DNA from: an uncultured bacterium
GTDB taxonomy: Bacteria; Cyanobacteriota; Vampirovibrionia; Gastranaerophilales; Gastranaerophilaceae
Assembly: GCA_949282215.1 (NCBI GenBank)
Contig: CASDPF010000007.1
Span: forward strand, 13,506-77,505
Reading direction: 5' to 3'
Length of the DNA stretch: 64,000 nt
Positions 2,143 through 55,990 of this stretch are shown in pieces (the stretch's first letter is position 1; each line of letters opens with the position of its first letter). Made by a program: the position numbers and the translations under genes. The notes under the pieces were generated by a model. That model had not been told where the DNA came from. It was given only the letters and a program-made list of their open reading frames with translations, and made no database searches.

Positions 2143-2278
2143 ATATCCTCCGATTAAATACCATCTTTTATTTTATAAATTTTTGTAACAGAAACCACCG
2201 TGTCAAATGGCACGGCTTGCATCTTAACTTCTTGAGACTTTAATCGGAGATTAGGGTCAAAAAAGCTTGATATACCTT

Positions 2279-2332
2279 TTAGTAGGTAGCCCCCCCCCCC
2301 GAAATCAAAGATATGCAAAGATTTTTCATCAT
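2279..2332 (-). CDS. leader uORF A, 17 codons (MMKNLCISLISGGGATY)
   Basis: GGAGG-N5-ATG. The frame runs through the G11 tract as GGG GGG GGG. The stop and the ISGGGAT[NY] end are shared with uORF B. Confidence 0.45.
   Translation of the reverse strand: MMKNLCISLISGGGATY
2290..2300. repeat. C11/G11 homopolymer inside uORF A
   Basis: Counted directly: 11 consecutive C on the plus strand. Confidence 0.95.
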
Positions 2333-2393
2333 TTTGACCTCCATTTTATATGATATATTTTATCATATTTCTTTCTTAATATCAACATCAAAA

Positions 2394-13206: not shown

Positions 13207-13340
13207 AAAACCTCCATTTGTTTTTATTACCTGTTTCTCAAAAATTTTGCAACACAAATTACCGTGTCACTTGGCACGGTTTATATCTCAGCTCTTTTCT
13301 TTACATCGGAGGTCTAAGTCGGAAATGCTTGATTTAACTG

Positions 13341-13391
13341 TTAGTTGGTAGCCCCCCCCCCCGAAATTCTATCTATCAGTGTTTTTTGCAT
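13341..13391 (-). CDS. leader uORF B, 16 codons (MQKTLIDRISGGGATN)
   Basis: AAGGAGG-N5-ATG. The G11 tract is read as GGG GGG GGG. It has the same C-terminal ISGGGAT[NY]-stop as uORF A. Confidence 0.45.
   Translation of the reverse strand: MQKTLIDRISGGGATN
13352..13362. repeat. C11/G11 homopolymer inside uORF B
   Basis: Counted directly: 11 consecutive C on the plus strand. Confidence 0.95.
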
Positions 13392-13467
13392 ATGGTCCTC
13401 CTTGTTTTTGTATATTAATATTATAAAGTATTTTTTTTATTATTTCAATACGTGCTATAATAATTTT

Positions 13468-13939: not shown

Positions 13940-16039
13940 TTAGAAGCTCAAATTAATCTGATATTTATTTAAGAATGTACGCATAGACTCTTCATCAAAT
14001 TTCAAAACAGTATGTTCTACGCCGTTGAAATTACGAGTCCCATCTTCTATCATTCCGAGATTTTTATAGAACTTCAGATTTTCAGGTTTATTGGTTGCAA
14101 GCTTTAAGACTTTATTGCCGATTTCAAGACAAAAACTTACCATTCTTGCCATAATAGCTCTGCCGCAACCTCTTATTTCAGCATTTTTACCCTGATTCCA
14201 AGGTGCTGTATTCAGACTTCTTGCCCAAATTTCTCTATTATTTTGGATTTCTACATTTGCAACAGCCTGCAATCTGCCATCATCAGTTTTTAAGGTGAAA
14301 TAATTTGCATCAGGATAAAGAGTTAAGGATTTATATGGAGGTAATATATCGGCTTCAGGATAAGATTTTTTAAGCCACTGTCTCCTGATATCAGCCATAA
14401 GTCTTTGATATTCAACTTTATCACTAAATGGAGTAATATCTTTAATATCTCCAAATAGAGGTTTTCCCTCCTGAACGTTTTGAAGATATACGCTTTGTCC
14501 GTCTTTCAGGATATTCCAAGGCAATTTCGGCTCAGCTATCGGAATAAATTTAGCAAATTTAGCATCTTTATTTTTGAATTTTTCAGATAAAATATTACGT
14601 TTATTGTTCAACTTCTGCATATACTCTGCAAAGTCTCTATCCTCTTTTGGAGTAATAGAATAAGAACCGTCAGCCATTTTAGCAATTTCAGCCTGTACCT
14701 CTTTCGGTAATTTGTCTTTTGGTATATCAAATCTTATTCCGGCTTTTTCAATACGCTCAAAACATTTATTTATGACACTTTCATCAGCAGACATAACTAT
14801 TCTTACATACCCTTCACCATTCGTCCCGAATACCGTCCCAGGGGTGAAGGCAACTTGAGCTTTATGCAGGACATATTTAAAAAATTCATCAGAAGTAAAT
14901 TTTGGAGGAACTTTAGCCCAAAGATAATAAGTCCCGTCTGTCGGTTTTGCATCACTGCCGAGTTTATTTAACCAACTTATAGCAGTATTTTTACGTCCTC
15001 TATAAATTTTATTAACTTTATTGATATATCCTTCTTCATCCTTCAAAGCAGCAATAGCGGCATGTTGGACAGGGACATATACACTTCCTCCTGATAAATA
15101 TTTGGCATTTAAAAGATTATCGATATTTTCTTTATCACTTACAGTAAACGCTACTCTAAATCCTGGCATACTCTGAGCTTTACTCATCGTATGAATTTGG
15201 AATGCGACCTCTTTTGCTCCGTCAATTTGCATAATTCCTATAGGTTTGCGTCCGGTATGCGTAACTTCGCTGTTATCCATATCATGAATAATTAGGACTT
15301 TATTTTTTCTTGCCCATTCAACGGCTTCTTCAAAAAACTTTTTCGGAGCGAATGAACCTGTCGGATTATGGGGATAATTAACAATTAAAATTTTTGCATC
15401 CTTAGGCATTTTAGAAAAATCAGGTAAATAACCTTTTTCGGGATTAAGGTCAAATTGAACTTTTTGCAAATCATGACGGGTAATCAAGTCATCATATAAA
15501 GAATACCCCGGATTTGGGACTAAAACTTTATCTCCATAGTTTGCATAAGCAGTAAAAATATGATCCACGGCATCAGAAGAGCCTGACGTTGCCATTACCT
15601 CAGTTTTAGGATTAATTTTCACGCCAAATCGCTTCATCATCCATTCTTCTATTGCATAGAAAAATGCCCCTTCACCTTTAGGATTATTATATCTGTGTGA
15701 CCAAAGATCATTAACTTTTTCTTTCAATGCAAGTTTAGCTTTCTCCGGCGGGGTCAAGTCAGGGTTTCCCATAGATAAATCAACAACAGCTCTATCACCG
15801 TGCAAATACCGAGCTTTCCCGATTTCTTTTATATAAGCTGATATAAGATAGTCAGACTTAGTCAATCTTTGAGCAGGTTTTATAAGACTTCCAAAATATA
15901 TTAATGAAAGCCTTGGAGATATTTTGCATTTATCATAATTTTCGGTTGAAATTTGTTCTTTTGAACTTTGATTTGCTTTAGAATTATTATTGTATATTGG
16001 ATTTATACTCTTCCACGTATTTATTGATGTAATTTTCAT
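13940..16039 (-). CDS. fusion protein: N/Q-rich extension + class I/II PLP aminotransferase + C-terminal GNAT acetyltransferase
   Basis: LSMGNPDLTPP, YPHNPTG and SKAQSMPGFRVAF (PLP lysine) mark the aminotransferase. The C-terminal RGCGRAIMARMV..FYKNLGM is a GNAT acetyl-CoA motif. Confidence 0.75.
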   Translation of the reverse strand: MKITSINTWKSINPIYNNNSKANQSSKEQISTENYDKCKISPRLSLIYFGSLIKPAQRLTKSDYLISAYIKEIGKARYLHGDRAVVDLSMGNPDLTPPEKAKLALKEKVNDLWSHRYNNPKGEGAFFYAIEEWMMKRFGVKINPKTEVMATSGSSDAVDHIFTAYANYGDKVLVPNPGYSLYDDLITRHDLQKVQFDLNPEKGYLPDFSKMPKDAKILIVNYPHNPTGSFAPKKFFEEAVEWARKNKVLIIHDMDNSEVTHTGRKPIGIMQIDGAKEVAFQIHTMSKAQSMPGFRVAFTVSDKENIDNLLNAKYLSGGSVYVPVQHAAIAALKDEEGYINKVNKIYRGRKNTAISWLNKLGSDAKPTDGTYYLWAKVPPKFTSDEFFKYVLHKAQVAFTPGTVFGTNGEGYVRIVMSADESVINKCFERIEKAGIRFDIPKDKLPKEVQAEIAKMADGSYSITPKEDRDFAEYMQKLNNKRNILSEKFKNKDAKFAKFIPIAEPKLPWNILKDGQSVYLQNVQEGKPLFGDIKDITPFSDKVEYQRLMADIRRQWLKKSYPEADILPPYKSLTLYPDANYFTLKTDDGRLQAVANVEIQNNREIWARSLNTAPWNQGKNAEIRGCGRAIMARMVSFCLEIGNKVLKLATNKPENLKFYKNLGMIEDGTRNFNGVEHTVLKFDEESMRTFLNKYQINLSF

Positions 16040-54864: not shown

Positions 54865-55179
54865 CTAAATTTCATTTACCATCTTAAATATGAAAGTTAA
54901 CTTTTCAGCATTTATTTTGGATAATTTTGTATTGATTTTTTTTATCATATCTTCTTTTTTGATGAAATGTTCTTGATTGAATATGTCCTCATAAGAAACA
55001 TTTAAACTGTCTATAATCTTTTCTAATGTTTCAAACGACGGATAATTTCGCCCATTTTCAATTCTGCTTAAATGTTTTGGGTCAATTCCCACCATTTCAG
55101 CAAGCTTATCCTGCGTATACTTTCTATTTTCTCGGAATTCTCTTATCCTCATCCCGAGTAACTCTTTTTTTGTTGTCAT
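54865..55179 (-). CDS. XRE-family HTH transcriptional regulator
   Basis: LGMRIREFRENRKYTQDKLAEMVGIDPKHLSRIENG is a Cro/C1 HTH. Confidence 0.8.
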   Translation of the reverse strand: MTTKKELLGMRIREFRENRKYTQDKLAEMVGIDPKHLSRIENGRNYPSFETLEKIIDSLNVSYEDIFNQEHFIKKEDMIKKINTKLSKINAEKLTFIFKMVNEI

Positions 55180-55321
55180 AATATCTCTACCAAACTGTTT
55201 TTATATTATTTTATAAATCACTCAAGATAACCATACTTATGTAGACTATATTGACAAAAGGTGATATATAATACATAATAGTAATATAGAATGCGGATAT
55301 TTAATCAGAAAGGTGATATTT

Positions 55322-55990
55322 ATGAGAACAAAAGGATTTACCTTAGCGGAAGTGTTAATCACTCTTAGTATTATTGGTATAATTGCAGCAATTACACTAT
55401 CTTCACTTGTAAATAGTTACAAAAAACAACAAACTATTGCTAAATTAAAAAAAGTATATACAAACCTTAATCAAGCATTAAAACTCGCAGAATCAGAATA
55501 TGGACCTTATGAGTACTGGGAGATTCCTGCTATAAATTCTAATGTAAAAAGTTATTACAATAAATACTGGTACCCATATTTTAAGATACTTAAATCGTGT
55601 GAGAACTATTCTCAATGCAATTATACGTCAAATCAGCCTTGGTATTACCCAAATGGATCAAAATCAACTCTAACTTTTAATAGTCAAATTCTCAGAATTC
55701 CATTTTTATTAACTGATGGTACTCTTATTTCAATTTCTATCGCTGGAGGAGATATCTTAACTAAAGAATCTCAAATTTATATAGACTTAAATGGAAGTAA
55801 ATTGCCTAATAAATACGGTATTGACGTATTCGTATTGAATAGGGTAAAAGGTAAAGGAATATTGGCTTATGGTCAAGAACTCTCTATAGATGAGATAAAA
55901 GAAGAATGCTCCTATTCTGGCAAAGGAGAAACATGTGCTGCTAGAATTATTTATGACGGATGGCAAATAAAAAACGATTATCCCTGGTAA
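55322..55990 (+). CDS. prepilin-type N-terminal cleavage/methylation domain protein
   Basis: MRTKG|FTLAEVLITLSIIGIIAAITL. The C-terminal IIYDGWQIKNDYPW is shared with 12439..13206. Confidence 0.85.
   Translation: MRTKGFTLAEVLITLSIIGIIAAITLSSLVNSYKKQQTIAKLKKVYTNLNQALKLAESEYGPYEYWEIPAINSNVKSYYNKYWYPYFKILKSCENYSQCNYTSNQPWYYPNGSKSTLTFNSQILRIPFLLTDGTLISISIAGGDILTKESQIYIDLNGSKLPNKYGIDVFVLNRVKGKGILAYGQELSIDEIKEECSYSGKGETCAARIIYDGWQIKNDYPW

Follow-up and report, generated by a model that had tools for sequence, protein, structure and literature searches.

Leader-peptide attenuation is known in transcriptional form from the trp, his and phe leaders and in translational form from genes of the ermC and cat type. 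Phase variation through homopolymeric tracts is also familiar: Neisseria pilC carries a G tract in its signal-peptide region, and the poly-G tracts upstream of the Treponema pallidum tpr genes are similar to that of Moraxella catarrhalis uspA1. Here, we describe leaders with features of both systems in front of two type IV pilin-like genes (A and B) of an uncultured bacterium of the Gastranaerophilaceae, within 64,000 nucleotides (nt) of contig CASDPF010000007.1 (GenBank assembly GCA_949282215.1, positions 13,506–77,505; hereafter the window). Each leader contains a short open reading frame (ORF) preceded by a Shine–Dalgarno (SD) sequence, a run of eleven G residues (G11) inside that ORF, a segment complementary to the SD of the pilin (anti-SD) and a hairpin. 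We propose an explanation in two layers, to which we give about an even chance of being right: a poly-G phase-variation module of the lineage, and a derived leader in which this module would act as a phase-variable leader-peptide attenuator, with the pilin off at G11. The hypermutable nature of the G run is the key to the locus.

Campylobacter jejuni has poly-G contingency genes with the tract in the 5′ coding region (PMC11955535, PMC6321876), and Neisseria lgt and pgtA are further poly-G contingency loci (PMC2192423, PMC2193922). The form that is common in the lineage of the window resembles these loci: a G run of ∼8–13 nt follows soon after the start codon and its length sets the frame, the length is polymorphic between isolates or samples, the products are surface- or pilus-associated and there are many loci per genome. 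Unlike the Campylobacter and Neisseria loci, G and C runs are both used here, at a near-fixed ∼28–30 nt from the ATG, and in the window the run lies in a separate leader ORF of 16–17 codons, not in the pilin ORF. As the run is outside the pilin ORF, any control of the pilin must be indirect. For a run that lies outside the ORF it regulates, the closest counterpart is M. catarrhalis uspA1, where a G(n) tract upstream of the ORF grades the mRNA level (PMC7302503), its length changing expression of the surface protein. However, the uspA1 tract is not described as lying in a translated, SD-led upstream ORF (uORF) with a hairpin and an anti-SD, and its mechanism is transcript level, whereas the run here lies within a well-formed short ORF whose reading frame is the proposed read-out.

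The first layer was examined in a survey of 82 loci (292 kb) from related genomes; the related loci come almost all from Candidatus Gastranaerophilales and Melainabacteria. G or C runs of at least 9 nt were concentrated in front of pilin-like genes, with 38 of 41 lying within 460 nt upstream of a pilin-like N-terminus, a zone that makes up 14% of the 292 kb. Among the 39 tract-bearing loci (from L001–L082 and L093), an SD and ATG precede the run in 38, mostly by 24–37 nt (mode 28–30). Runs are 8–13 nt long, except for one C16 at a contig end, and the coding strand carries either G or C. Between the run and the FTLAEV motif, the pilin frame is open in 37 of the 39 loci, over up to 432 nt, compared with 1 and 3 loci for the other two frames. 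Such a pattern is typical of phase-variable genes that have a homopolymer tract in their 5′ coding region. We propose that a module of promoter, strong SD, ATG, ∼29 nt and G11 has been placed before many pilin-like genes in the lineage, and that slipped-strand mispairing would alter the length of the G or C run and with it the frame of the ORF read from that ATG. In the usual form, with no stop in the pilin frame between the run and the mature pilin, only one in every three run lengths would make protein.

Variation in run length was found at an ortholog of gene A. The syntenic ortholog follows the same glycoside-hydrolase-like gene in L001 and L002 (59% and 77% protein identity), and in both loci a strong SD and an ATG are again followed, after ∼29 nt, by a G11 run. 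No start codon lies beside the mature pilin there; the pilin frame has no stop as far back as the run, and G10 would fuse the short ORF to the pilin. The called proteins of A-type orthologs have long N-terminal extensions beginning with MRGGG. We then compared contigs behind the 90%-identity protein cluster of the sister-species ortholog of A, whose members differ in their N-termini. The flanks are near-identical and the run differs between samples (G10, G11 and G12). The short ORF runs in frame into the pilin at G10 (MKSLDMIAFAGGGQSKSK...NGFTLAEV; protein P0247); G11, the commonest state, is out of frame, as is G12 except in one contig with a different 5′ module. Judged from these assemblies, the differences are slipped-strand phase variation. 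With the open pilin frames, they leave the role of the poly-G/C run as a hypermutable frame switch before pilin-like genes well supported at the sequence level.

Further features of the module were observed at these loci. The exceptional contig (L106) has, at the same pilin locus as L095–L104, a wholly different promoter/SD/ATG module (MKTPGYGGVC-GGGG...), which makes G12 in-frame; 5′ modules seem to have been exchanged between loci. Contigs L084, L094, L102 and L105 have a terminus or a scaffold N gap exactly at the run, consistent with length heterogeneity or sequencing difficulty; assemblies of these genomes are fragmented as a result. The distance from start codon to run clusters tightly at 27–30 nt (9–10 codons) for G and C runs alike. 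Such a fixed distance is not needed by frame-based phase variation, and may mean that a mobile 5′ module was inherited from a common ancestor or that its position is mechanically constrained. When the runs of ∼45 loci and the window are written as G, their flanks are alike (ttC-Gn-C[a/g]a[c/t]t) whichever strand holds the G, a likeness that may stem from a strand-symmetric element at the DNA level or from shared origin and not from constraint on the coding sequence. Repetitive extragenic palindromic (REP)-like elements, which translate as ...CHPELVSGS..., lie between run and pilin in P0007, P0012, P0069 and L079 (137–440), and are kept in frame in several genes, giving called products of 400–414 amino acids (aa); in L079 they disrupt the frame.

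In the assembled consensus, only 3 of the 38 genes with SD–ATG, run and pilin are in frame, although chance alone would put one third in frame (binomial P = 2.5e-4); 21 of the out-of-frame loci need a one-base insertion and 14 a one-base deletion. This shortage of in-frame alleles points either to strong selection for the off state at each paralog or to slippage at the RNA level. According to the latter explanation, RNA polymerase slippage or ribosomal frameshifting on G9–G13 would give each out-of-frame allele a fixed, low in-frame fraction, and the dominance of the out-of-frame G11 at the ortholog of A would fit this too. We consider it very improbable, because heritable DNA length variants, in-frame ones included, exist among samples and because the two corrections are about equally frequent, so that no single programmed shift is indicated. 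An excess of off states would also arise if selection acted against expressing each surface protein. In addition, slippage on G or C runs is less well documented than on A or T runs.

Returning to the window, four pilin-like genes are present and the G11 leader stands before two of them. Genes A and B, together with a third paralog (C, complete in contig L107), encode proteins that we class from their sequences as type IV pilin-like, since all three match the prepilin N-terminal methylation motif (Pfam N_methyl; 29.5, 28 and 27.3 bits for A, B and C, cut-off 21.2). Precomputed annotation assigns proteins A and B to PF20318 (DUF6613), and protein A gave only weak, sub-threshold matches to the GspG and ComGE models. 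Pilins A and B each have their own GGAGG and ATG (MRKKK and MKKKK), and their frame is closed between run and gene, being open only from 48 and 78 nt before FTLAEV, respectively; the run therefore sits in a free-standing leader ORF. Within this window of 32% GC, the only G runs of at least 9 nt are the two in these leaders, and G9 matches number 6 compared with 0.03 in shuffles, which bears out the contention of an earlier note, made from the window sequence, that the arrangement is no accident.

The same note had read leader A on the minus strand as a promoter, an SD-led uORF with G11, an anti-SD and a hairpin, and each element was recovered where it had been placed (Table 1). The three GGG codons of leader ORF A lie in the G run. 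Its anti-SD, CUCCGAUUAAA, is complementary over all 11 nt (100%) to UUUAAUCGGAG at 2158–2148, in agreement with the pairing claimed. The hairpin DNA is an 8-2-8 near-palindrome (CCGTGnCA-nn-TGnCACGG), and the palindrome CGTGNCANNTGNCACG occurs within the window only at leaders A and B. The hairpin was scored terminator-like in A, B and C, with folding energies of −8.1 to −8.3 kcal/mol (−8.1 in A). By comparison, a terminator-like hairpin after the upstream gene (2422–2404) has −8.6 kcal/mol; the predicted stability of the leader hairpin equals that of the upstream one. In leader A the RBS (ribosome-binding site)/start region of the leader ORF itself, GGUCAAAA (2332–2339), is also perfectly complementary over 8 nt to UUUUGACC (2255–2262) on the 3′ side of the run, and this pairing may mask initiation of the leader ORF.

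Table 1. Coordinates of leader and pilin features in the window (SD, Shine–Dalgarno; Gn, run of n G residues)
Feature	Position	Strand	Remarks
A: promoter-like TTGATA-N17-TAAAAT, TG before −10	2357–2385	−	10/12 matches in promoter scan; leader transcript
A: SD (GGAGG) of short leader ORF	2338–2342	−	Read in sequence
A: leader ORF, 17 codons plus stop, MMKNLCISLISGGGATY-stop, G11 state	2279–2332	−	ATG at 2332
A: G11 homopolymer, hypermutable tract	2290–2300	−	32 nt from ATG 2332; 29 nt from second ATG 2329
A: pyrimidine-rich segment AGCUUUUUUGACCC	2254–2267	−	Predicted partner of G run + GCU (helix P1)
A: anti-SD CUCCGAUUAAA	2239–2249	−	Core CUCCG common to A, B and C
A: hairpin GCCGUG-CCAUUUGA-CACGGU	2197–2216	−	Scored terminator-like with U-rich tail; stem CCGUG/CACGG 2215–2198
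A: U-rich tail GGUUUCUGUU 3′ of hairpin	2187–2196	−	Columns U..UUU.UG.U invariant in A, B and C
A: internal promoter-like TTGACA-N16-AAAAAT	2179–2206	−	10/12 matches; overlaps hairpin 3′ arm; rival reading of the same DNA
A: UAA ending leader ORF in G12/G9 state	2154–2156	−	11 nt before pilin ATG, within SD-masking helix
A: pilin ribosome-binding region UUUAAUCGGAGG	2147–2158	−	GGAGG at 2151–2147
A: type IV pilin-like gene, 247 aa, MRKKKAFTLAEVL...	1399–2142	−	ATG at 2142
B: entire leader	13207–13448	−	Element order as in A
B: promoter	13448–13420	−	
B: SD of leader ORF	13401–13397	−	
B: leader ORF, MQKTLIDRISGGGATN-stop	13391–13341	−	
B: G11	13362–13352	−	
B: anti-SD ACCUCC	13313–13308	−	
B: hairpin	13280–13261	−	
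B: pilin SD	13215–13210	−	
B: type IV pilin-like gene, 255 aa	12439–13206	−	Pfam N_methyl

The earlier note had also reported that the whole layout recurs before gene B. The order of elements does recur, but the anti-SD of B pairs over only 6–7 base pairs (bp), ACCUCC(G) with (U)GGAGGU, and that of C over 9 nt at 89%; the 11-nt match is therefore specific to A. Copy C, whose leader ORF encodes MQKISIERISGGGATN followed by a stop, was located by a gapped pattern scan of metagenome contigs that required CTCCGAT and the hairpin. The one further contig that the scan found, L094, holds a partial leader C; its pilin is 94% identical to that of L107, which has the complete leader. Promoter-like sites equivalent to that of A lie upstream of copies B and C (L107) too. 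The leader ORFs have 16–17 codons in all three copies, with a conserved C-terminus (ISGGGAT(N/Y)-stop), and the spacing is the same throughout: 29 nt from ATG to run, a G11 run, 72–74 nt from run to hairpin and 55 nt from hairpin to pilin ATG.

Conservation in the leader was compared with that in the adjacent genes. The post-run leaders of A, B and C are 67–83% identical (89–100% in the hairpin), compared with 39–52% at third codon positions of the conserved N-terminal 32 codons of the pilins; past residue 32 the proteins are only 25–28% identical (A versus B 25%). Since the leader is more conserved than adjacent third positions and its spacing is equal, the comparison argues for function or repeated gene conversion, and not for neutral decay. 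A conserved peptide encoded by the post-run leader was considered and rejected, given a 2-nt indel between A and B and non-synonymous B/C substitutions in the open frame.

The conserved leader is narrowly distributed. Outside the window, the post-run leader was found only in same-strain contigs, all of them G11, and in paralog C (partial in L094, complete in L107). Neither the syntenic orthologs of A (L001, L002 and L095–L106) nor those of B (L087–L092) have the CUACC, CUCCGAU or CCGUGCCA..UGACACGG blocks, and the post-run blocks are absent from 80 other pilin-like loci by blastn, pattern search and covariance model. The covariance model scored A, B and C at 154–220 bits and the next best of 89 sources at 23 bits. 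A widely conserved structured leader is rejected on these grounds, as the three methods match only A, B and C over ∼90 loci. The comparison with orthologous pilin leaders that the earlier note had proposed has a divided outcome: the SD, uORF and G run are conserved far beyond this genome, but the CUACC, CUCCGAU and paired blocks, hairpin and anti-SD are not. The leader form of the window is best described as a local derived variant of the lineage module.

To analyse the frame logic, leaders A, B and C were edited in silico to other run lengths. In B and C, the leader ORF ends 22–29 nt before the anti-SD at G10, G11 and G13; in A it ends 29 nt before the anti-SD at G11 and 7 nt before it at G10 and G13. 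The G10-frame stop is kept at one codon position by different codons (TAA in B, TAG in L094 and TGA in L107). At G12 or G9, the leader ORF crosses the anti-SD: in B and C it ends at a UGA 8 nt before the hairpin, and in A it crosses the hairpin as well and ends at a UAA 11 nt before the pilin ATG.

Based on this geometry, we propose the second layer. Pilins A, B and C, with their own SD and ATG, follow a separate leader ORF containing the run and then ∼150 nt of conserved leader, in which a pyrimidine stretch can pair with the G run and the CUCCG anti-SD with the pilin SD, and a terminator-like hairpin stands ahead of a U-rich tail. At G11 (the observed state), G10 and G13, translation of the leader ORF would stop before the anti-SD, so that the leader folds and terminates transcription or masks the RBS, leaving the pilin off or low. 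At G12 or G9, ribosomes would read across the anti-SD, freeing the SD and preventing hairpin formation, and the pilin would be on. A ribosome ending 8 nt before the stem in B and C would cover its 5′ arm, and in A the stop 11 nt before the pilin ATG would allow translational coupling. A role for the A/B/C leader as a phase-variable attenuator, deduced from the frame geometry, is plausible, as is a cis-regulatory leader that masks the pilin RBS. More tentatively, and with the balance somewhat against it, we suggest that the leader couples heritable G-run length, through the frame of the leader ORF, to an independently initiating pilin, amid dozens of mostly-off phase-variable pilin-like genes.

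Like attenuators of the trp and ermC types, the leader places a short SD-led ORF between promoter and gene, followed by a terminator-like hairpin and a predicted SD-sequestering helix, and the position at which the leader ribosome stops would decide which structures form. Unlike them, its input would be heritable run length rather than tRNA charging or an antibiotic; it has no product-related regulatory codons, matches no Rfam leader and shows no alternative helix. Indeed, no anti-terminator or anti-sequester helix appeared in the minimum-energy, centroid or consensus folds, and disruption would therefore have to come from ribosome occupancy alone. The SD:anti-SD helix and the hairpin are both present in the minimum-energy folds, and the former is also in the consensus fold.

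Several observations weigh against an attenuator, and the statistical support for its frame logic is modest. The long open G12 frame of A is only mildly unusual, as in 8% of shuffles some frame stays open over 44 codons or more. The hairpin has an interrupted U tract that starts 3 nt past the stem, and in B and C the anti-SD helix has only 6–9 bp and closes a ∼90-nt loop. Fold energies are no better than those of shuffles (z = −1.06 for A and −0.50 for B), and compensatory double changes occur in 0 of 25 consensus pairs of A/B/C; where the copies differ at paired positions, the changes are C/U transitions and G–C or G–U pairing is preserved. Recurrence of the leader is not independent evidence, because the copies are paralogs of one or nearly one species, and the CTCCGAT and hairpin blocks of C are not independent either, since the search pattern required both. 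No variation in run length was seen at A, B or C themselves, as G11 is present in each assembly that covers the tract, namely the window and two others for A, the window and two others for B (those encoding identical proteins) and a single one for C. Finally, the pilin has a good SD and ATG of its own and a promoter-like site lies inside the hairpin, so that expression independent of the leader ORF is possible.

That promoter-like site is the starting point of a different explanation, which we regard as rather unlikely: the SD–ATG–G11 module would be a relic of an ancestral fused phase-variable pilin ORF, the pilin would use the hairpin-overlapping promoter and its own SD, and run length would have no effect. 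The closed frame between run and pilin start and the invariant G11 would both be expected of a relic. In favour of the promoter, TTGACA or GTGACA elements with a 16–17-nt spacer and AAAAAT occur in A and in C (GTGACA-N17-AAAAAT), and a weaker version in B (GTGACA-N15-CAAAAT) was read from the sequence and is absent from the scan output. There is also precedent for gain, loss and decoupling of modules. The syntenic orthologs of B (L087–L092, 63% identity) have neither run nor such a leader, and locus L079, where REP-like insertions lie between a G9 module and a new pilin start, looks like simple decay, which is a further point against an attenuator. In a variant of the relic explanation, the hairpin would terminate or insulate an upstream mini-transcript, or would be a DNA palindrome bound by a regulator; the 8-2-8 symmetry suits the latter, and GTG-N8-CAC resembles CRP/FNR-type sites.

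Other features are hard to square with a relic. Three diverged paralogs retain a perfect G11 in a genome of 32% GC, the spacing is identical and the leader is more conserved than adjacent synonymous sites. In A, B and C, stops are retained in two frames and the third is open across the anti-SD, and the U-rich columns 3′ of the hairpin are invariant, which is not required of a promoter spacer. As to the regulator variant, the palindrome was found nowhere else in the window or in ∼90 loci and there is no sign of a regulon; an operator of a regulon therefore has no support.

The phase-variable attenuator was also weighed against one of fixed length, in which the G run would be structural or would pause ribosomes (three rare, SD-like GGG codons), with uORF translation or a ligand governing the helices and no heritable switching. 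This would account for G11 in all copies and assemblies, for the conserved C-terminus of the uORF and for the predicted helices (G run with pyrimidine stretch, anti-SD with SD, and hairpin). We consider it improbable, as the same SD–ATG–run module is length-polymorphic at the syntenic ortholog, and elsewhere is built from G or C runs of 8–13 nt on either strand relative to the gene, unlike a specific RNA fold. The leader is confined to three paralogs, and no rationale ties glycine codons to a pilin. Moreover, no mutually exclusive anti-terminator was found, and the lack of covariation and the weak z-scores count against it, as does the lack of an Rfam match: Rfam 15 at gathering thresholds returned only two tRNAs over the whole window, and a permissive scan of 2050–2500 gave sub-threshold noise only. 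A known RNA family is rejected by both scans, so the Rfam check proposed in the earlier note produced no family, and nothing supports the A/B leader as a new riboswitch or structured-RNA class. A G-quadruplex, as found upstream of Neisseria pilE, was set aside by reasoning, since four tracts of three G residues cannot be drawn from a single G11.

Pilin-like genes without a run may be controlled in another way, through regulators. In the window, one tract-less pilin-like gene (ATG at 55322, plus strand; region 54950–55340) is, judged by eye, seemingly preceded by a divergent gene, and the syntenic ortholog of B in L092 (1068–1382) is preceded by a seemingly divergent gene annotated as helix-turn-helix (XRE-type). 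The minus strand of 13940–16039 holds a 699-aa ORF in which residues 52–437 match LL-diaminopimelate aminotransferase; ∼260 extra C-terminal residues are outside the best-scoring models and it may be a fusion protein.

The SD-led ORF with G11 belongs to the familiar class of phase switches that work by repeat slippage, and neither this lineage nor this gene family has a prior report of one in the searchable literature; searches for Melainabacteria or Gastranaerophilales together with phase variation, homopolymeric tracts, pilin or DUF6613 found nothing relevant. In practical terms, gene callers mis-annotate run-bearing pilin-like genes, giving N-terminal extensions of 40–170 residues from spurious starts in or next to the run, and assemblies break at the runs. 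If the second layer is true, the link from run length to attenuation of an independently initiated gene would be a new coupling mechanism among the forms of phase variation. No such mechanism was found in the literature on phase-variable uORFs or leader peptides, and to our knowledge the coupling of repeat slippage to expression through a phase-variable leader-peptide attenuator has not been described. Gastranaerophilales are widespread, uncultured gut relatives of cyanobacteria whose surface biology is essentially unknown. Our results suggest that they carry a large type IV pilin-like repertoire behind slippery G/C runs, mostly off in the population consensus. Stochastic variation of the surface as a means of immune, phage or niche evasion has this kind of run-controlled repertoire as its hallmark, and most examples to date are from pathogens, Neisseria and Campylobacter among them.

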